Shown here one piece after another: positions 1,828 through 17,815 of a stretch of DNA of 20,000 bases. Under the pieces are notes generated by a model. It was not told the origin of the DNA. It saw nothing but the letters and a program-made list of their open reading frames with translations, and did no database searches. Source of the stretch: an uncultured virus (IMG/VR IMGVR_UViG_3300031625_000002) (lineage: Duplodnaviria; Heunggongvirae; Uroviricota; Caudoviricetes); IMG/VR virus record IMGVR_UViG_3300031625_000002, positions 53,011 to 73,010 of that record. The stretch is one strand, 5' to 3'. Within the stretch, counting starts at the first letter, position 1; every line of letters begins with the position of its first letter. The position numbers and the translations under genes were made by a program.

Positions 1828-2219
1828 GCGTCAAAGATTTAGTATATCACAAATTTAATAAGCGGTTCCCAAAAAAATTGTTAGAAGTTAAGTATGTGGA
1901 CCTCACTCTTACAAAATCTTTTGGAAGAGGCAACGCAAGACATACCGACTCGCGCAGGAGTGGGACTTGGAAAGAAACACATGGTTGGAAATATAGGTTA
2001 CCATACAATGTAGAGTCAGTTTCGGAGAAGTGGTATATCAAAAGATATATTTCCAGGAAGGTTCTTGGATTTGAATTCGTTTACAAGGAAGCGGTTGCCG
2101 AAGTCCATTTTGAAGAAATAAACAATCACGCTTGTTTTGGTGATACTTGGCCGCAAAGAGTTTGGGACGTTTGGGAAAAACATAATTTGGTAAATCAACC
2201 AACTGGAGATACTAAATGA
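1824..2219 (+). CDS. Hypothetical basic protein
   Basis: ORF 1809..2219; ATG 1824 overlaps the upstream TGA (ATGA coupling), and its own stop overlaps the next ATG. Confidence 0.7.
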   Translation: MSVKDLVYHKFNKRFPKKLLEVKYVDLTLTKSFGRGNARHTDSRRSGTWKETHGWKYRLPYNVESVSEKWYIKRYISRKVLGFEFVYKEAVAEVHFEEINNHACFGDTWPQRVWDVWEKHNLVNQPTGDTK

Positions 2220-2575
2220 AAAATCTTGATAAAATATTCTCGGAGGAAGATATCACTCTTCTCATTGAATATGCAGATGGGAGAAAGCATGATAATTTTG
2301 AATACGAAATAGAGACTTTTGATCATGAAAATATAGGTAGGACTATGCTTCACATGAAAAACGGTCTTTGTGAACAGAGGCTTATCGCTCGTTTTCACTA
2401 TCCTAAAAACGAGGGTTCTGATGATGGTTATGGGTATCCAGAAATGATGTTGGTAATAGGTAATGATGGCGATGTTTCCTTTCAAAATTTGGGGAACTGT
2501 CGTTTCCGTCTCCACGAACCTCTCAAGGCTTATGAATTGATGTTGAGACGATTAAGACCAGAACTTTTTGAATAG
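2216..2575 (+). CDS. Hypothetical protein (119 aa)
   Basis: GGAG RBS upstream, ATGA coupling, protein-like composition. Confidence 0.75.
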   Translation: MKNLDKIFSEEDITLLIEYADGRKHDNFEYEIETFDHENIGRTMLHMKNGLCEQRLIARFHYPKNEGSDDGYGYPEMMLVIGNDGDVSFQNLGNCRFRLHEPLKAYELMLRRLRPELFE

Positions 2576-2578
2576 GAC

Positions 2579-2607
2579 TTGACACAGGGTAAAGACTGTG
2601 TTATGTT
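2579..2607 (+). promoter_or_regulatory. Sigma70-like promoter driving the non-coding RNA region
   Basis: TTGACA (2579-2584), 17 nt, TATGTT (2602-2607) with extended TG. The inverted repeat ACACAG/CTGTGT (2582-2601) spans the end of the -35 box and the spacer. Confidence 0.7.
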
Positions 2608-2619
2608 GTATCATGTTAG

Positions 2620-3040
2620 AGACAATTGAATATCGAAAGTTTGATGGCGTGGAGACAGGATTATGGGTAACCGTAGAATTGATGTTAACGTAGCGCCAGC
2701 AGTGGAGTGGAGACGTACCACTATGGAGTGGAATTCATAGAAGCTGTGAGGGACACATAATAAGACTTTTAAAGAGGCTTGAGGATTAGGGCGTAACCCA
2801 CTCAAGTAACTATGTAGCCCTCTCGTTTTGCCGGTCAGAAGCGATAGTGTAGACCGGTGAAAGCTGGCATTTATGCCTAAATAAATAGGGAGACCGTCTA
2901 CCCGAATAAAGTCGGCACTCAGTTCCCCAGAGTTAATGGGGACGGGATTTTGGAAGCCTCCCCAGATTGGCTCTACGTTTTGCATTGTTCGGAAATTCAA
3001 TGTCGTAGCTGCGCACTACGTTAGGTGGCTCCAATGCGCA
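2620..3040 (+). ncRNA. Large structured RNA, family unassigned
   Basis: No credible ORF. Long-range pairings ATTGAAT/ATTCAAT (2625-2631/2995-3001) and AACGTAGCGCCAG/TTGGCTCTACGTT (2687-2699/2967-2979) enclose many hairpins (CTATGGA/TTCATAG, CTTGAG/CTCAAG, CCGGT-GAAA-GCTGG, GTTCCCCA/TGGGGAC). Confidence 0.6.
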
Positions 3041-3051
3041 ATTTTTATTTT

Positions 3052-3157
3052 GATGCTGTGAACGTAATTAATGCGAACAAGGGAGTTGGTGTCAGGGAGC
3101 GAGGGTAACGGAATGAGTACCGGTGAACCTAGCGGATGGGGATACTTGATCAGCATC
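3052..3157 (+). ncRNA. ~106-nt RNA domain closed by a terminal stem, unassigned
   Basis: GATGCTG (3052-3058) pairs with CAGCATC (3151-3157); flanked by T-rich linkers. Confidence 0.45.
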
Positions 3158-3164
3158 TTTGATT

Positions 3165-3435
3165 AACCGGATGGCGCTATCCTTAAAGTGTCGGAAAACA
3201 CTATCCTTAAGTGTGGGCAGAATATTCTTTAGGCCCTAAACTAAAAGATTATCGACATCGGATACAGATGGGGCCTGGGGCGGCATTGAGGCTTCCTTGA
3301 TAATACATATATCAAGTAAATAAAATGTGTCGTCATGGCGTATCGCGTTAGGATAGTTTCCATACGCCTTAATTTTAGGATCTAAAGCGCCAGCAAATGT
3401 CCACCTCCATACGGGGGGTGGACAGCGCTGGTGAG
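3165..3435 (+). ncRNA. Cluster of hairpins, possible third structured RNA
   Basis: Hairpins AGTGT/ACACT, CTTGATA/TATCAAG, GGCGTAT/ATACGCC and CGCCAGC..TGTCCACCTCC/GGGGGTGGACA..GCTGGTG; CTATCCTTAA occurs twice. Confidence 0.4.
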
Positions 3436-3475
3436 GAAATTTTGTGAAAGTTTTGAAATTTTTTCTCAAAGCGGC

Positions 3476-3503
3476 TTGCAAAACGGAAAAGTCACGGTAT
3501 AAT
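3476..3503 (+). promoter_or_regulatory. Sigma70-like promoter for the GOLLD-like RNA
   Basis: TTGCAA (3476-3481), 16 nt, TATAAT (3498-3503), with an A/T-rich tract upstream. Confidence 0.7.
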
Positions 3504-3509
3504 AAGAAG

Positions 3510-4450
3510 CATGTTGGAAGTGGTTAACGCCGCATCTAACAGAAAGTAAAAACTGAATATTTAATTTAAGGGCAGTATGATGTCCTCCTGTTCCCTTCGG
3601 GTAACAGGTTAAGATAAGCCATGGAAACATGGTGAAATGGGGGACCCGCTACGGGCCTCGCCAAACTCTTCGGAGAGTGGTCAGTTATGCAAACCAAGCT
3701 TCTGTGAATTTCCCTCTTGGGGAGTTATACTTGAAGGTGGAGATTAAATGAATGTGGTGGCCAACGGTGGCTATGTTCTACTAACGTTAGCGACGAGAAC
3801 TTATCTTATGCCAAACATCGAAAGTTAAGAAGCAAAGGGTAGTTGTGTTGTCTGAGTTTGCAGACAAAGGCTTCACAGCAGATTGTTGGGTAACAGGAAA
3901 CCATTTAACAATGGGGGACCTGAAGTCCTGTAAATCCGTCTGGTAGCCCGCAAGGCCAAAGATATGAGGTGTGTGGCATTCTACTTCTCAAAAGGAAGCG
4001 GAACCATCGAGAGCGCACATCTTGGTAGATTTATCTGTAGCTCAATAGCAGAGCTATTCCCTCATACGGAATCGGTTTTGGTGCAACTCCAAACGGATAT
4101 TTTTTAACGAAAATAAAAAAACGCAAAGACGCTCTCGGTAGTAGGTGAAAATGGCCTAATTCCAAATCCTTCGGGTAATTTGGAGACGTGAAGCTCGCAA
4201 GGCAGATCGTTTTAGGACAAGTTAAAATTTAGTGGATTAGCGTTCACGAACTGTTCATAAGGCAGGAATGGAAACGAGTTCTGATTAGCTTACTATGACG
4301 GCGCAGTCGCAGGCGCTTAATAAAATTGCGGTCATGATCGATGTCTGGTGTCCAGCTTGCTGGCCCAGAAGGAAATTAGGGCAAGGCACGTCGCAAGCGT
4401 ACTGTAATCCTGAAGAGTCGATTATTGAAGGTGTATTTCTCAACCTTTTA
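3510..4450 (+). ncRNA. GOLLD-like large ncRNA
   Basis: ~900-nt unit without credible ORF between a promoter and a terminator, rich in UUCG/GCAA/GAAA tetraloop hairpins. Motifs recalled from GOLLD: GGCAGTATGATGTCC (3571-3585), CCCGCAAGG (3947-3955), CTTCTCAAAAGGAAG (3984-3998), GCAAAGAC...GTAGGTGAAAATGGCCTA and 3' GAAGGTGTATTTCTCAACCTT (4427-4447). Contains a tRNA, as many GOLLD RNAs do. Confidence 0.75.
4031..4101 (+). tRNA. tRNA with CAT anticodon (Met/Ile2-type), atypical, embedded in the GOLLD-like RNA
   Basis: Acceptor TTATCTG/CGGATAT (1:72 mismatch); D-arm GCTC-aatagca-GAGC; anticodon arm ATTCC-ctCATac-GGAAT (CAT 4063-4065); T-arm TTTGG-tgcaact-CCAAA; no encoded CCA. Confidence 0.75.
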
Positions 4451-4456
4451 ATTTTT

Positions 4457-4491
4457 TGTCAGGTGACTTCGGTCGTCTGGCATTTTTTTTT
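4457..4491 (+). terminator. Intrinsic terminator ending the GOLLD-like RNA
   Basis: TGTCAGGTGAC-TTCG-GTCGTCTGGCA followed by 9 T. Confidence 0.9.
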
Positions 4492-4600
4492 GCCTATATA
4501 ACATAAGGAATATGAATAATGGAGGATACAGTAAAATAATTTTTCGATGAGTTTATTAAAAAGTTCGATCTAAAAGAGTTGATCATTGATACGTTCTATC

Positions 4601-5266
4601 TTAATCGTTCCAATAATCTTTCTCGTCATCGTCGTTATCCTCAAAGGCGTGAGGGCTTACTTCCCCATCCCATTCATAATCGATATTGAAATCTTCTTGA
4701 AGCATTTCAAAGTTGTTCAAATCATTATCTATAAGTGAATGTCCTTGACCGTGTCCAAAGACAACCTCTTGGACTCTACCTTTTGGCATTTCAACGCCAA
4801 AATATTCAATGCCATTTGGAATTACTCCATAAACTGGTTGGTCATTTGTTAAGTGTGAGGGAGTTATATCTATAACCTTTCCATTTAATGAATTCCACCC
4901 GTGATTCCTGAAAAATGTTCCGGCATATCCTTCAACATATTTGAAGTCATTGTCATGTAACATTAATAATTGAGAAGAGTAGAAACACTCTTTGACTTCC
5001 CCGCGTTTAAAAATACTATAAAGGCTTTCAATTTTTTCCTGTTCTTCAGGGGTCAATTCAGCAGACTCATACAGTTTGCCATGGGTCAAATAGAAATATG
5101 GCATCGTAGGATAATGAAAATCGCTTGTTTGAGAATTCATTCCTACTTGCATAATGTGTTGCATAGCCAGAGCAGTCATAATCTGGCTGTGTGAAAACTG
5201 ATTTTTCCAGGCCAATAATTCAGGCGTTATGTTCTCGATCCAATTTGATTTTTTGTACCAATTCAT
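4601..5266 (-). CDS. MNWYKK-start protein with a papain/transglutaminase-like Cys-His-Asp arrangement
   Basis: Start at ATG 5266 with GGAG RBS; motifs ECFYSSQ, YVEGYA and HGWNSLNGKVIDIT. Confidence 0.7.
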   Translation of the reverse strand: MNWYKKSNWIENITPELLAWKNQFSHSQIMTALAMQHIMQVGMNSQTSDFHYPTMPYFYLTHGKLYESAELTPEEQEKIESLYSIFKRGEVKECFYSSQLLMLHDNDFKYVEGYAGTFFRNHGWNSLNGKVIDITPSHLTNDQPVYGVIPNGIEYFGVEMPKGRVQEVVFGHGQGHSLIDNDLNNFEMLQEDFNIDYEWDGEVSPHAFEDNDDDEKDYWND

Positions 5267-5379: not shown

Positions 5380-5739
5380 ATGGGAATTGAATATAAGAGG
5401 TATTTACTCTTTGACCATCGTGCTGTAAAGTACTTAAACGAAATACTTTCTAAAACAGAGGCTAATATCGTAATAAGTTCGTCTTGGAGAAAAATCCATA
5501 CTTTAGATGAAATTAGAGAGCAATTTAAGTCTCAGGGTATAATTGATGTCGATAGAGTCGTCAGTATGACAGGTGGGTCAAAAGACGGGATAAGAGGCGG
5601 AGAGATTCAAACCTGGATTGACAATAACCCATGTGGTAATTTTGTAATAATAGATGATGACTCAGACATGATTCATCTCATGGACCATCTCGTTTTAACA
5701 AGAAACGCGACCGGCTTATCTTATCGAAACAAACTTTAA
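5380..5739 (+). CDS. HAD-superfamily Swiss-Army-Knife RNA-repair-like phosphatase domain, N-terminally truncated
   Basis: IVISSSWR, RGGEIQTWID and FVIIDDDSDM motifs present; the N-terminal FLDxDGV motif I is absent. The frame continues IIRRLKRS* past TAA 5737-5739. Confidence 0.75.
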   Translation: MGIEYKRYLLFDHRAVKYLNEILSKTEANIVISSSWRKIHTLDEIREQFKSQGIIDVDRVVSMTGGSKDGIRGGEIQTWIDNNPCGNFVIIDDDSDMIHLMDHLVLTRNATGLSYRNKL

Positions 5740-10996: not shown

Positions 10997-11156
10997 AGAA
11001 CTCCAAGAATTAGTCAATGGTAGATTCATTGACGCCTTTGGCAGAACACCACTTCGGCAGCGACAGGAAGATATTTTGGGCGAGGCGATTGAACTCAAAA
11101 ACGCAACAGATATTACGAATCTCAGAGAAGAGACGGGGGATTTGCTTCAACAATGA
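10986..11156 (+). CDS. MazG-like NTP pyrophosphohydrolase N-terminal fragment (split from downstream NadD)
   Basis: EDILGEAIEL...LREETGDLL matches the MazG ExxE...EExGD pattern; the helix continues as (AS)TMMLCSESGWSVEEL in the next frame. Confidence 0.65.
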   Translation: MKIKELQELVNGRFIDAFGRTPLRQRQEDILGEAIELKNATDITNLREETGDLLQQ

Positions 11157-11863
11157 TGTTGTGTAGTGAGTCTGGCTGGTCAGTAGAAGAGCTTGTGCAG
11201 TCAACTCTTAATAAGACAGAGAGAAGAAAGGAGCAATACCACACGTTGGGGAGAAAGACAAAGGTCGCTCTTCTTGGTGGGGCTTTTAATCCGCCTACGA
11301 TTGGCCACTTAAGGCTTGCACAGTTCATTCTCGATACAAGTAAGAACTTCGATGAGGTTTGGTTTGTACCGTGTTATCAGCACATGTATAACAAAGAACT
11401 CGTTACACCAGAGCATAGATTGGCTATGTGTAACTTGTTATGCGCTAACGATTGCAGAATAAAGACATTTGATTATGAGATCAAAAATCAATTACGTGGT
11501 GAGACTTACCATTTTGTAAAGAGATTGCTTGATGAAGACTTTGCAAAAGACCAATATGATTTTAGTATGATAATTGGGTTGGACAATGCTAACACATTTG
11601 ATAAGTGGGTGAACTACGAAGATCTTGAGAAGATGATGCGCTTTGTCGTGGTGTCTCGACAAGGGACCGAAAGAGATGAGTCTGTAGACTGGTACTTAAA
11701 GCCACCACACATTTATCTTTACAGTGGTGGTGATGTCCCAGAGATATCTTCAACGGAAATCAGAAGGTGTATCGTCGAAGACGACACATCACAAGCCGCT
11801 TACGTTAAAGAGTTCATGGATGATGGGGTATGGAAATACCTTTGTGATAACGAACTTTATTGA
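11153..11863 (+). CDS. nadD: Nicotinate/nicotinamide mononucleotide adenylyltransferase
   Basis: LLGGAFNPPTIGH (HxGH), DEVWFVP, HRLAMC, IIGLDN..TFDKW and ISSTEIR. Confidence 0.88.
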   Translation: MMLCSESGWSVEELVQSTLNKTERRKEQYHTLGRKTKVALLGGAFNPPTIGHLRLAQFILDTSKNFDEVWFVPCYQHMYNKELVTPEHRLAMCNLLCANDCRIKTFDYEIKNQLRGETYHFVKRLLDEDFAKDQYDFSMIIGLDNANTFDKWVNYEDLEKMMRFVVVSRQGTERDESVDWYLKPPHIYLYSGGDVPEISSTEIRRCIVEDDTSQAAYVKEFMDDGVWKYLCDNELY

Positions 11864-13330: not shown

Positions 13331-14992
13331 TTAACCGCTTGAACTGCTTGAGCAACTACTTGAACTGCTTGAGCAACTACTTGAACTTGAACTACTGTTA
13401 CATGCCGCCGCAGTTATAGTACAGCCACCACCATATCCATTATAGGCACCAGTGGCTGGAGAGGTTCCAGAATCGAACACGTAGCAACGTGGATTATCTC
13501 CTCCGTATGAGTTTTCATTAGCAAGAATCCATAATCCACCATCATAGTCACTGTAGAACAGTCTAAATAATTCATTGTTGTCTCTATGGGTATAAATCCA
13601 ACGACTTCCACCTGTTACAAATGACAACGTTGATGTTTGCCAGTATCCTTTACCACCAGTTGCACAGTAGATTCCAGAATATTCATCTGCGGTTCCAGTG
13701 ACCTTATATGCTTGTTCGATAATTGAATCGGCAGAACTCGAACTGCATGAGCAGCTTGAGCTACTTGACGGTGAAGGGTCAAGGGACATGCTACTACTAC
13801 TACTGCTTAAGCTACTTGAGCTACTTGAGCTACCACATGCTGCTGTAATTAATGTGAGGTCATCATTTCCCCAAACTCCAATTGGAGGCGAGTCGGCACT
13901 AAAAGGGATCGATACGGCTTTGTTAAAACCATTATATGTACTTGGAGCAAGAACCCATCTTCCCACTTCTCTTTCTTCATAAAATAAGATCTTGGTGGCA
14001 TCGGCGGCGTTTTCATAAACGAACTTGCTTCCGCCAGCAACAAATGCACCATCTAAGAAATAGGCGACATGATCAGGGCAGTAGACGCCATTGTATCCAG
14101 AGGTTTCAAATCCGGTTATCTTATATGATTGGGCTCCAAACGGATCGACGCTGGAACTACTTGAGCTACTAACCCAACTTGAACATGAGCTTGAACTACA
14201 TGAGTTTGAACTTGATGAAACCCAACTTGAACAAGATGAGCTTGAGGAACTTGAGGAAGATGATGAGCAACTACATGAGCAACTGCTTGATGAACTTGAG
14301 GATGAGCTACCACATGTTGCCGTTGCAATTACTGCGCTCCCGTCCCATGATCCAGTGGGTGGAGTCGTTCCATTGTCTTGTATTAAATCTATTTCGTTTT
14401 GGCCGTCATATAAATCTTCATTTGCCAATATCCACCATCCACCAGCATAATTGTTGTAAAACAAGAACAAATCATTAGTTGGATCTTGATATCTCAATCT
14501 GCTTCCACCAGATACCCATGAACCGTGATCATAATAACCAGAGTCAAAGGCGCAATAAACACCGTTCTGAGCTTGGGTTAAACCACCAACACTAAATGCT
14601 GATACAGCAAGATTGTCGAGGGAGCTTGAAGAGCTTGAGCAGCTACATGATGAGGAAGAACTTTGGGAAACTGAGGAACATGAGCTACTTGAGCTTGAAC
14701 AATCGACATTTTGTGTTATGGTAAGACCACCGTCACCCCAGACACCGGGTGGCGGCACTAAGGCGGAATGCTTCAGATTAGTGTATTGATTGAAGCCGTT
14801 GTAACTTTGAGCTATGGTCCATCTATTAATAGTACCGTAAATCTCATAAAAAATCTGCTTGGTGGCGTCATCTCTATTGTTATAGATTTGTCTTGTCCCA
14901 CCGCCAACGAAGGCTCCGCTTTCATAGTACCCTAAAGAGTCTTCACAATAGACACCATCAAAACCAGTTGAATTGCTAATTCGTATAGCCAT
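13331..14992 (-). CDS. Four-repeat protein with Ser/Cys-rich linkers; probable virion surface/adhesin protein
   Basis: GGAGG RBS. Four ~95-105 aa modules (G.YC....GY...G.FV.GG....Y......LFY.....W.LA......PP.G.W) separated by S(n)C tracts. Confidence 0.8.
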   Translation of the reverse strand: MAIRISNSTGFDGVYCEDSLGYYESGAFVGGGTRQIYNNRDDATKQIFYEIYGTINRWTIAQSYNGFNQYTNLKHSALVPPPGVWGDGGLTITQNVDCSSSSSSCSSVSQSSSSSCSCSSSSSSLDNLAVSAFSVGGLTQAQNGVYCAFDSGYYDHGSWVSGGSRLRYQDPTNDLFLFYNNYAGGWWILANEDLYDGQNEIDLIQDNGTTPPTGSWDGSAVIATATCGSSSSSSSSSCSCSCSSSSSSSSSSSCSSWVSSSSNSCSSSSCSSWVSSSSSSSVDPFGAQSYKITGFETSGYNGVYCPDHVAYFLDGAFVAGGSKFVYENAADATKILFYEEREVGRWVLAPSTYNGFNKAVSIPFSADSPPIGVWGNDDLTLITAACGSSSSSSSLSSSSSSMSLDPSPSSSSSCSCSSSSADSIIEQAYKVTGTADEYSGIYCATGGKGYWQTSTLSFVTGGSRWIYTHRDNNELFRLFYSDYDGGLWILANENSYGGDNPRCYVFDSGTSPATGAYNGYGGGCTITAAACNSSSSSSSCSSSSSSCSSSSSG

Positions 14993-15162: not shown

Positions 15163-15723
15163 ATGAAAATAAGAAAAGCCGTATATGCTGGCAGCTTCGA
15201 TCCTGTGACCAATGGGTATCTTGATATCATCAAGAGAGCGTCCAAAATTTTTGATGAGGTTATCGTTGCAATTGGTATGAATCCTGGTAAAACACCAATG
15301 TTTTCTGCTGATGAAAGATATAAATTTGTACATGAAGCCACGTCAGCGAAGAAATTTGGATCGTTGTTGAGCGTGACATATTCGAGGAAGGATTCTAAAA
15401 AGATAGAAAAATTTATTCTTTCGACTGAGGCCGGGGTAGATTACAGTTGCTTGACAGAAAGACGCCTTCATGGTCTTGACTATTCAATAATTGCAGCCCC
15501 AAGGAATATTTACGAGAAGTACGCCAAGGCAATCGCCAGTGAATACATTGTTCATGGTGGTTGCACAATAAATGAATACGTGAATGGTAGACATAAGTTT
15601 TTGAAGAGCACAATAGAGTCGGATGTTTTCTTGACTGACGAATTTGCACCATCAGAAGCAATGGCTCAGGAAAACATGGAATGGGAAATTGAAAATCTTT
15701 ATAAAATAGCGGGGTCAGAATAA
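15163..15723 (+). CDS. Chimeric protein: CoaD (phosphopantetheine adenylyltransferase)-like N-terminal ~60 aa plus unrelated C-terminus
   Basis: [48 protein letters not shown] matches CoaD, but TNGH is TNGY and the RGLR...DFEYE and SSS motifs are missing. Confidence 0.7.
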
Positions 15724-16372: not shown

Positions 16373-17815
16373 ATGGGCCTCAAAGCACACAAGTTTGGCA
16401 CACATCCGTTTGACACAACCTACGATGTGATTGATTCCGCCACACTCCAATGCACTGACCTCAAGAAAGGGTCTAACAAGTTCTATCAGATGGAGTTACA
16501 CAAAAACGCCTCTGGTTATTGGAGGATCTTCACAGCTAACGGGCGCACAGGCTCATACTCTACCCAATTGGAGCGTATGCCTGAAGACGAGACGGCAGGA
16601 CGCGCAGAGTACGCAAAGATTTTCCGCACCAAGACCACCCGCAAGAGTCAGCCTTATACTAAGGTTGATGTTGTGAATTCCAACCTTGGAACAGATGCTG
16701 GGAACCAAGTTGTTCAATCAGACGACTTCGATCAGAAGAACATCACCGTTGCCGACACAGGCAAAAAGAATAAATCAAAGAAGGTTATTCCAATCAAGAT
16801 TTCTCAGTTGGTTTCCAGGCTCTACAGTGAAGCCGGTAACGCTTGTAAAAGCCAGCTTCATGGAAGTGTTCAAGCGAGTGAAGAGAACCCTCTTGGGACT
16901 CTTACAAAAACTCAGATTGAAGATGGTAGAGCCATTCTTCAAGAGGCGAATGCCATCTTGGTCGCTGACGCCACTCGTATTGACTCAATTGAATCTGAGG
17001 TTATCGCTATAACTGACAAGTTCTACAGCACTATTCCACAGGAAATTGCTCTTCGCCCGAAAACTAAAGCCGGAGAAGATGCCCGTGATGATTGGATGCG
17101 TGGAATTGCCCTCAACAATGCTACAATCCTTGATGATAAGTTTGATCTTCTCGACCTTCTTGGTGATGTGAAGGGAATGATGGGCGGTTTCGCCACGACA
17201 GATGAAGAAAAACGTTTGAAAGAGGCGAACTGTGAGTTTTCTGAAGTGGACAGTGCCACTTTCAAACAGGTCTGCGATCTTATTGTCAATACTCAGTCGA
17301 AGCACCACAATTGGAAGTTGAATCCAAGGCGAATTTTTTCAATGAAAAGCAAATCTCAATCAAGTCATAAAAAAACAATGGGGGAAACCGGGAATTGTCA
17401 AGAACTTTTCCATGGATCTGGATCTCAAAATATTTTGGGAATATGTAAACGAGGAATTTTAATACGTCCTCCTGGGGTCTATATTACTGGCGCGTTATTG
17501 GGAAACGGGGCTTATTTCGCTAATAATAGTACAAAATCAAGTCAATATTCTACTGGCAGATTTGGTGGATCTGGATCTTCCAATGGAAATACTTCATTTA
17601 TGTTTGTTGCCAACGTGGCTCTTGGGAAAGTGAAAAAATTAAGCAAGGGTAGCAGTTCTATTGTCAAAGCACCGAATGGTTTTGATTCTGTTATGGGGGC
17701 TGCTAATTATACAGATTGTGGATGGAGTAAACTCCTTCATGATGAATTTGTAGTTTATGATGTTAAACAGCATACTCTTGACTACTTGATTGAATTTGAA
17801 CAATCTTATAGATAG
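16373..17815 (+). CDS. Poly(ADP-ribose) polymerase-like protein: WGR + helical regulatory + catalytic domains
   Basis: WGR-like SNKFYQMEL...NGRTG...F..KT; regulatory PLGTLTKTQIEDGRAIL...TDKFYSTIP; catalytic LFHGS, I...G..I.PP, GNGAYFA, TKSSQY, VALG and HDEFVVYD (H-Y-E triad). Confidence 0.92.
   Translation: MGLKAHKFGTHPFDTTYDVIDSATLQCTDLKKGSNKFYQMELHKNASGYWRIFTANGRTGSYSTQLERMPEDETAGRAEYAKIFRTKTTRKSQPYTKVDVVNSNLGTDAGNQVVQSDDFDQKNITVADTGKKNKSKKVIPIKISQLVSRLYSEAGNACKSQLHGSVQASEENPLGTLTKTQIEDGRAILQEANAILVADATRIDSIESEVIAITDKFYSTIPQEIALRPKTKAGEDARDDWMRGIALNNATILDDKFDLLDLLGDVKGMMGGFATTDEEKRLKEANCEFSEVDSATFKQVCDLIVNTQSKHHNWKLNPRRIFSMKSKSQSSHKKTMGETGNCQELFHGSGSQNILGICKRGILIRPPGVYITGALLGNGAYFANNSTKSSQYSTGRFGGSGSSNGNTSFMFVANVALGKVKKLSKGSSSIVKAPNGFDSVMGAANYTDCGWSKLLHDEFVVYDVKQHTLDYLIEFEQSYR

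Follow-up and report, generated by a model that had tools for sequence, protein, structure and literature searches.

Does the long non-coding gap that precedes a GOLLD RNA in a jumbo phage encode a second structured RNA, and does such an RNA belong to a known family? GOLLD and ROOL are phage RNAs of unknown function that assemble into cages made of RNA alone and are located close to tRNA islands, and the linkers of GOLLD sometimes carry tRNAs (10.1101/2024.12.08.627333; PMC12286853). The window analyzed here, a stretch of 20,000 nucleotides, corresponds to the terminal part of a virus record of 73 kb (G000). A 235-kb record (G001) represents the same phage, is 93% complete, and is identical to the shorter one across window positions 2200-4700. 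An earlier reading of the window, referred to below as the preliminary description, had proposed an unassigned, multi-branched RNA of ~420 nt under its own promoter upstream of GOLLD. We named this region segment A, and the region between it and GOLLD segment B (Table 1).

The non-coding gap and its gene neighbourhood

The ~235-kb jumbo phage encodes DNA polymerase, DnaB, RecA-like, SbcCD and RecJ proteins as well as tRNAs, and its clade appears to be uncharacterised. No capsid, portal or terminase protein was recognised when 25 large proteins of the phage were analyzed by a PHROGs scan. Segments A and B and GOLLD are located in a gap of 2025 nt (2576-4600), which exceeds every other non-coding gap of the 73-kb record in length and in which a promoter, segment A, segment B, the GOLLD promoter, GOLLD with a tRNA-Met, and a terminator follow each other in this order. 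The upstream gene stops at position 2575, before the first promoter.

Genes related to RNA repair and NAD surround this island. An RNA ligase gene (1-134) ends at position 134, and an RNA-repair-type gene encoding a HAD_SAK_2 phosphatase is present at 5380-5739. Two cytidylyltransferase-like proteins (11153-11863 and 15163-15723) and a WGR-PARP protein (16373-17815) are also encoded near the island. A 553-aa protein encoded on the minus strand (13331-14992), for which no Pfam family was found, consists of repeated domains split by long Ser/Cys runs. Long gaps without a called gene are present in G001:C1 (215485-217096, 232203-233004 and 203586-205686) and in G050:C1 (18303-20000 and 146743-147699); beyond tRNAs they gave no Rfam match, some of them are GC-rich (0.46-0.53), and they might contain further ncRNAs or atypical genes.

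Table 1. Positions of the sequence features in and around the non-coding gap (window coordinates)
Feature	Position	Strand	Remarks
Inverted repeat spanning the promoter	2572-2611		z -5.06, reached by 0/200 shuffles
Sigma-70-type promoter with extended -10	2579-2607	+	same class as 35 other phage promoters
129-codon antisense frame, judged spurious	2611-3000	-	codon score -0.37
Segment A, candidate structured ncRNA	2613-~3045	+	non-coding, G-rich, promoter-driven
26-codon leaderless ORF at predicted +1	2613-2693	+	stop codon inside the two-partner segment
Closing helix, 5' strands (predicted)	2615-2631, partner 2995-3009	+	pair probability 0.86-0.92
Two-partner segment (predicted)	2686-2696	+	partners 2968-2979 (state 1) or 3013-3023 (state 2)
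Best-supported domain: three-way junction and 11-bp hairpin 2826-2862	2748-2862	+	main stems 0.88-0.99
3' element: putative H-type pseudoknot, or terminator-like hairpin 3010-3040 with a broken U-tract after it	3004-3052	+	
Segment B, second orphan non-coding segment	3050-3435	+	no own promoter, no Rfam match
Strong terminal hairpin of B	3388-3433	+	pair probability 0.94-0.99, z -5.51
GOLLD promoter	3476-3503	+	
GOLLD RNA	3510-4446	+	5' domain about 3510-3942, 3' domain 3966-4446
tRNA-Met(CAU) in the GOLLD linker	4031-4101	+	
GOLLD terminator	4457-4492	+	

Segment A has a promoter and lacks a coding signal

The near-consensus sigma-70 promoter that had been seen ahead of segment A consists of TTGACA (2579-2584), a 17-nt spacer containing a TG, and TATGTT (2602-2607). 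It matches the consensus at 10 of 12 positions and belongs to a class of which 36 promoters were detected in the 73-kb record and nine pieces of the 235-kb record. Judged by the spacing of this promoter, transcription would start at position 2613. The inverted repeat that spans the promoter, the sole copy in the phage pieces scanned, may form a terminator-like hairpin that ends the upstream operon, act as an operator that binds a repressor, or both.

The view that the promoter is followed by no credible ORF was borne out, apart from a frame of 26 codons that begins at the predicted +1. The codon score of this frame is above that of 24% of the coding chunks and is matched by 9% of the non-coding stretches. 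An ATG located 4-8 nt past the -10 is present at 8 of the 36 promoters, none of which opens an ORF of at least 50 aa. Since transcription usually starts at a pyrimidine-A-T sequence, these ATGs with their short frames fit such a start rather than translation. Stop-codon recoding opens no frame.

The preliminary description had named protein-level conservation of the minus-strand ORF as an observation that would speak against an RNA. Based on the codon usage of the phage, the score of this frame is lower than those of all 89 real gene chunks (89/89), and five short neighbouring genes score 0.08-0.28. A search among 5.8 billion proteins (size range 70-226 aa) returned only the frame itself, and it gave neither a Pfam family nor an Atlas hit.

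Segment A is separate from GOLLD

The GOLLD 3' domain matches the Rfam model RF02032 with 148.1 bits (E 6e-40). The gathering score of this model is 150 and, therefore, a default Rfam scan would miss GOLLD at this locus. Segment A lies upstream of GOLLD, which has a separate promoter, and the 3'-domain match is absent from the region 2590-3990. A profile of the GOLLD 5' domain, built without the sequence of this phage, matches positions 3565-3900 (E 2.7e-9) and gives no match in segment A; in segment B there is one weak match (2.6 bits, E 0.018). In 22 of 23 other distinct GOLLD loci with upstream DNA, the 5' domain starts 337-520 nt ahead of the 3' domain, and segment A ends ~900 nt ahead of it. 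Because the 5' domain is in its normal place here and the profile skips segment A, segment A is an extra element, and A and B together do not represent an extension of the 5' domain of GOLLD. GOLLD is full-length at this locus even if segment A is left aside, and its 5' domain has a normal length.

Segment A shares with GOLLD (RF02032) the island, the strand and the promoter class, a G-rich composition, an excess of tetraloops, and the character of a large phage ncRNA. It differs from GOLLD in that it has no tRNA-bearing linker and matches the profile of neither domain. Two antisense pairings with GOLLD that were striking in the folds were rejected: 2730-2745 of segment A with 3697-3712 was equalled in 75/500 and 9/25 shuffles, and 3326-3371 of segment B with 4258-4305 in 81/500 and 4/25 shuffles.

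The linkers of many phage GOLLD RNAs hold a tRNA, of His, Asn, Leu, Arg, Gln, Lys, Met or suppressor type (for example at loci L013, L016, L018, L023, L026, L036, L045, L046, L050, L061 and L069). The accessible text of PMC12990946 proposes "inhibited storage" for a tRNA within GOLLD. Caulobacter phage phiCbK (JX163858; L366 3197-4510) contains a GOLLD of 165 bits with a tRNA-Gly inside and, just upstream on the opposite strand, a permuted tmRNA (71 bits), both of which are unannotated in the record; phiCbK-type phages carry GOLLD and a permuted tmRNA. At locus L046 (381-847), a phage tmRNA is directly followed by an HDV-like ribozyme fold, ~2 kb upstream of GOLLD. This fold scores 37.2 bits, which is under the gathering score, and it matches the descriptor used below.

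Segment A matches no known RNA family

Scanning with cmscan against Rfam had been put forward as a check on novelty. A scan of the whole window at E <= 1 gave nothing credible in segment A or B, and a search of the region 2590-3990 with 4227 Rfam models at E <= 10 gave three short chance matches only. The models for RNase P, group I and II introns, OLE, HEARO, 6S, SRP and riboswitches did not match segment A, and there was no riboswitch or T-box match. The earlier statement that hallmarks of RNase P, tmRNA and group I/II introns are lacking agrees with these scans, and motifs typical of RNase P and of introns were not seen in segment A either. Rfam intron models can overlook divergent members. 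A group I or II context (an interrupted gene, a downstream exon frame, or an adjacent reverse transcriptase (RT) or endonuclease) was not found.

A divergent ROOL-like RNA had also been suggested. ROOL RNAs have an average length of 581 nt, six junctions and three pseudoknots and occur near tRNA islands, according to the accessible text of PMC5737381. Like ROOL (RF03087), segment A is predicted to be a large multibranched phage RNA with pseudoknots, and the size of ROOL lies between those of A and A+B. Segment A differs in size from the ROOL average and has no match to the ROOL covariance model in the Rfam scans, so the suggestion is unsupported. On whole records, the ROOL model gave no match in either of the two records (0/2) at E <= 1, where the control genomes were equally silent.

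We examined tmRNA closely because 4 of 23 loci carry one ahead of GOLLD and 2 of 3 clade relatives have one, and none is seen in this phage. A search with RF00023, which found the control in 14 of 14 genomes, gave nothing at the locus or elsewhere in the 93% complete record. ARAGORN at default settings reported no tmRNA, and a permuted call appeared only at threshold 70, among 14 noise calls. When segment A was aligned to five phage tmRNAs, the best alignment was equalled in 56/300 shuffles. The size of segment A, its GOLLD neighbour and its predicted long irregular closing helix recall tmRNA (RF00023; permuted form RF04321). The two defining parts of tmRNA are missing: ARAGORN, default and relaxed, found no tRNA-like domain (acceptor stem with G3.U70, T-arm), and no tag frame with an Ala-Ala-type degron is present among the ORFs of at least 20 aa or, by eye, among the shorter frames; the tags given by relaxed ARAGORN are noise. 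Finally, an HDV-like nested double pseudoknot (P1-P4 with catalytic C) was not found on either strand of 2591-3520 with a descriptor that recovers the L046 control; an earlier, stricter descriptor had missed this control.

Predicted fold of segment A

Both of the nested long-range helices described earlier are predicted. The outer helix (2625-2631/2995-3001, pair probability 0.87) extends outward (2615-2624/3001-3009), and the inner helix, which is irregular, is formed by 2681-2699/2967-2986 (0.58-0.63). The claim of six or more enclosed hairpins is likewise reproduced: a three-way junction (2748-2822, main stems at 0.96-0.99) and six hairpins are predicted as enclosed elements, the hairpins at 2662-2675 (0.96), 2721-2740 (0.61), 2826-2862 (0.88), 2866-2877 (0.43), 2888-2903 (0.63-0.69) and 2924-2942 (0.71). 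The best-supported domain, 2748-2862, has a folding z of -2.6, which is reached by 1/200 shuffles.

For the whole fold, the minimum free energy gives a z of -2.06 to -2.2 versus dinucleotide shuffles, a level (z <= -2) that 6 of the 26 control tiles taken from the phage also attain, and the minus strand of segment A has a z of -1.9. Since the GOLLD 3' domain itself has a folding z of +1.1, this z is a weak test here, which neither proves nor excludes an ornate RNA. Closure between the 5' and 3' ends of segment A (first 25 nt with last 70 nt), counted from a +1 that had been placed independently of the fold, is not reached by any of 60 shuffles; among 34 promoter-initiated 433-nt transcripts of the phage it ranks second, with 6/34 near it (score at least 11.8). 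Ensemble diversity is ordinary, at the level of 21/60 shuffles and not below the shuffles.

Stems capped by GNRA or UUCG number seven in segment A, versus 3.0 expected, an excess restricted to the plus strand that is equalled in 47/2000 shuffles, or in 200/2000 when the test is limited to stems of at least 3 bp. This resembles the excess in the GOLLD 3' domain (8 versus 3.4 expected). In composition, segments A and B are also like GOLLD (GC content 0.44-0.46, G over C skew 0.14-0.22); a GC content of 0.46 is found in none of the 26 control tiles (0/26) and a skew of 0.19 in 3/26. Most of these chance tests were framed after the feature had been seen, and with relaxed criteria the tests for the switch, the tetraloops and the pseudoknot give 8-15%. 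The single-sequence evidence is moderate and would place the predicted fold of segment A modestly above chance. A thrice-repeated 9-mer (59/200 shuffles) and a role as a CsrA sponge (13 GGA in 433 nt, versus ~9 expected from composition) were rejected as signals.

A two-partner segment and a 3' element

One segment (2686-2696) can pair with two partners, both of which are present as the preliminary description had stated, although the second is located at 3013-3023, one position off from the 3012-3022 given before. State 1 (2687-2693/2973-2979) has an ensemble energy of -141.2 kcal/mol and an occupancy of 0.64; for state 2 (2686-2693/3016-3023) these values are -138.8 kcal/mol, i.e. 2.4 kcal/mol above state 1, and 0.02. 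The two-partner arrangement is found in 3/300 shuffles with an 11-mer test and in 83/1000 with a 7-mer test.

The pseudoknot that had been proposed for the 3' hairpin loop is present as an H-type geometry at 3004-3040, with stem 1 (3004-3008/3016-3020), a loop 1 of 1 nt, stem 2 (3010-3015/3035-3040) and a loop 3 of 14 nt. Its ideal geometry (loops of 1 nt and 0 nt) is found in 21/2000 shuffles, or in 148/1000 with relaxed settings, and similar patterns elsewhere in the record amount to 11 rows per strand. The pseudoknot stem competes with the closing helix; a nested fold with this stem is 8.5 kcal/mol worse. The hexamer 3010-3015 is self-complementary and has a second copy at 3035-3040 (36/2000 shuffles; a self-complementary loop alone is common, 284/2000), which would allow pairing in cis as well as between two RNA molecules.

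The probability of the hairpin 3010-3040 falls from 0.98 to 0.00 when state 2 forms. As this hairpin precedes a broken U-tract, its removal would follow a terminator/antiterminator logic for read-through into segment B. The hairpin itself is weak (local z +0.9) and was not flagged by a terminator scan. A simpler account is that 3016-3020 would pair locally with 3004-3008 as stem 1 of the pseudoknot, for which no switch is needed; this pairing can coexist with state 1, at the expense of the outer closing pairs. Segment A had been called ornate or switchable. The corresponding folds are indeed predicted, from one sequence since the scanned collections contain identical copies only, and the second pairing accounts for ~2% of the ensemble.

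Segment B and the extent of the transcript

No promoter is present between segments A and B. Whereas a promoter-driven segment A stands as first described, the boundary of the ~420-nt unit may therefore be too short, and the RNA may be about 820 nt (A+B) instead of about 430 nt (A alone). The terminal hairpin of segment B is likely the 3' end of such an A+B unit; without this hairpin, the folding z of segment B is +0.1. Segment B also contains two adjacent hairpins (3173-3192 and 3197-3214) that have the same loop of 9 nt and, 150-180 nt downstream, two tracts complementary to these loops (3348-3356 and 3374-3383), an arrangement found in 9/1000 shuffles in a post hoc test. Pairing between A and B is not significant (487/500 shuffles). 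The loop of these twin hairpins is anti-Shine-Dalgarno-like: complements of its 6-mer are present upstream of 9/136 genes versus in 2/136 gene bodies, which is what any anti-Shine-Dalgarno-like sequence would show.

Searches for relatives

The homologue search that had been proposed yielded identical copies and no diverged relative. Fourteen loci contain the region, and all are identical where they overlap 2571-4500. Searches of viral contigs with the neighbouring proteins also returned identical copies only, and of 280 pattern matches to the antisense-frame translation in metagenomes two were confirmed, both identical. No homologue of segment A was found by motif scans, which covered 41 loci and at least 109 loci in viral contigs and 5 in GTDB genomes, by BLAST in 48 other records (49 were chosen from about 120 GOLLD-motif loci), by nhmmer in the upstream DNA of 36 GOLLD-matching loci, or in 50,697 phage records and 72,556 plasmids. 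A covariance model built from a single sequence (R1, 2745-2915) gave nothing in 45 records, in a run without a positive control, and segment A has no homologue in three distant clade relatives, where the covariance-model run included a positive control. The best R1 match in a gap (L350, E 0.25) turned out to lie antisense to a protein gene. A second model of this type (R2, 3160-3330) yielded no homologue of segment B.

A clade marker protein matched 114 clusters and has counterparts in three other viral-contig records at 31-35% identity and none in GTDB; the nearest clusters of a core protein are at 53% or less. The three clade relatives in viral contigs have no GOLLD. Even the flanking proteins find only identical copies, which means that close relatives of the phage are absent from the collections, and missing homologues of segment A are therefore expected; the negative results hold within the sensitivity of one-sequence models.

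In the literature covered, which largely leaves out subscription journals, no paper that deals with an RNA encoded ahead of GOLLD was found. Candidate viral RNAs in PMC10690425 are 29-151 nt long, and the DNA-virus alignment archive of that study could list a fragment of segment A. A term search of the accessible part of 10.64898/2026.10.21.760802 returned no mention of GOLLD, ROOL or phage.

Discussion

Segment A is preceded by a sigma-70-type promoter, lacks a coding signal, is separate from GOLLD and is absent from Rfam. With somewhat better than even confidence, we take it to be a standalone structured ncRNA gene, or the 5' part of one, in a phage island devoted to RNA handling, whose product would be a stable folded RNA like GOLLD and ROOL. 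The core of the earlier reading, a promoter-driven, non-coding and uncatalogued structured RNA, fits the data best; its likeness to ROOL is without support.

The main competing view, which we think unlikely, regards A and B as a transcribed but unselected spacer or relic of a decayed mobile element or RNA gene that folds by chance. It would account for the missing homologues, for a folding z of segment A within the range of the control tiles, for the z of +0.1 of segment B minus its last hairpin, and for the mostly post hoc nature of the feature tests. It is opposed by the strong, intact promoter, by a composition unlike that of all 26 control tiles and equal to that of GOLLD, and by several independent features that are each at the 1-2% level; moreover, the GOLLD 3' domain is also without a folding excess, and homologues would be missing in any case since close relatives of the phage are not in the collections. 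We consider it highly unlikely that segment A, alone or with B, belongs to or derives from a known family from which it has strongly diverged; the most plausible such family would be tmRNA, followed by ROOL, a self-splicing intron or a ribozyme. The presence of tmRNA in 4 of 23 other loci, at most 3 kb ahead of GOLLD, its presence in 2 of 3 clade relatives while this phage shows none, and the long irregular inner helix, which by eye recalls helix 2 of tmRNA, would fit this idea; it is opposed by the lack of a credible Rfam match, of a T-arm and of a tag, by the unremarkable tmRNA alignment, by the lack of an HDV-like fold in a scan whose control worked, and by the lack of an interrupted gene, RT or endonuclease nearby. 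We give hardly any credence to the minus-strand 129-codon ORF being a real gene with an incidental RNA structure: although 135 codons are stop-free and a gene caller called the ORF on two short contigs, 15 contigs carry a call of the neighbouring gene, the codon score is below all real chunks, no homologue exists in the proteins searched, and the strong promoter faces the opposite way.

Two further accounts make use of the two-partner segment. In one, which we consider improbable, segment A contains an attenuator-type switch: state 1 would keep the hairpin 3010-3040, state 2 would destroy it and allow read-through into segment B, and a ligand, a protein or a ribosome on the 26-codon ORF would set the ratio of the 430-nt and 820-nt products. 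The complete loss of the hairpin in state 2 at a cost of just 2.4 kcal/mol, the low frequency of the arrangement in the 11-mer shuffles, the stop codon of the ORF within the switch segment and the missing promoter of segment B are consistent with this account. State 2, however, makes up ~2% at equilibrium, and state 1 would form first during transcription. Blocking the stop-codon region leaves the hairpin at 1.00, so a ribosome there would not trigger read-through; in addition, the hairpin is weak and not called as a terminator, no coding target lies downstream, an ATG at +1 with a short ORF is common among the promoters of the phage, and there is no riboswitch or T-box match. The other account, to which we also assign a low probability, is that A and B constitute a new class of large RNA. 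Here, the switch at 2686-2696 would set whether a 430-nt form, ending in the pseudoknot with the self-complementary loop, or an 820-nt form with a twin kissing-loop domain is made, and the product would self-assemble or act together with the adjacent GOLLD cage.

If segment A is a standalone structured ncRNA gene, a host-type sigma-70 polymerase would start at about 2613, and the 5' end of the RNA would pair with 2995-3009, while the inner long helix would close a multibranched core with GNRA-capped hairpins. Most transcripts would stop at the hairpin and U-tract at 3040-3052, and some or all may continue through segment B to the hairpin at 3433 (~820 nt). The product might be an abundant, nuclease-resistant folded RNA that packs via tetraloop and kissing-loop contacts, perhaps dimerising via the self-complementary loop 3010-3015. 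By analogy, its function is most likely GOLLD/ROOL-like, and it could support phage translation as a scaffold or a decoy, together with GOLLD, the enclosed tRNA-Met and the nearby RNA-repair genes.

In summary, segment A probably represents a genuine phage ncRNA gene that is uncatalogued and of a kind known in outline; it is an orphan lead and not yet a family. If real, it would be another uncatalogued large folded phage RNA, of which few are known, arranged in tandem with GOLLD, and its position beside a tRNA-loaded GOLLD and RNA-repair genes would make it a direct candidate for a partner or cargo of RNA-only assemblies.
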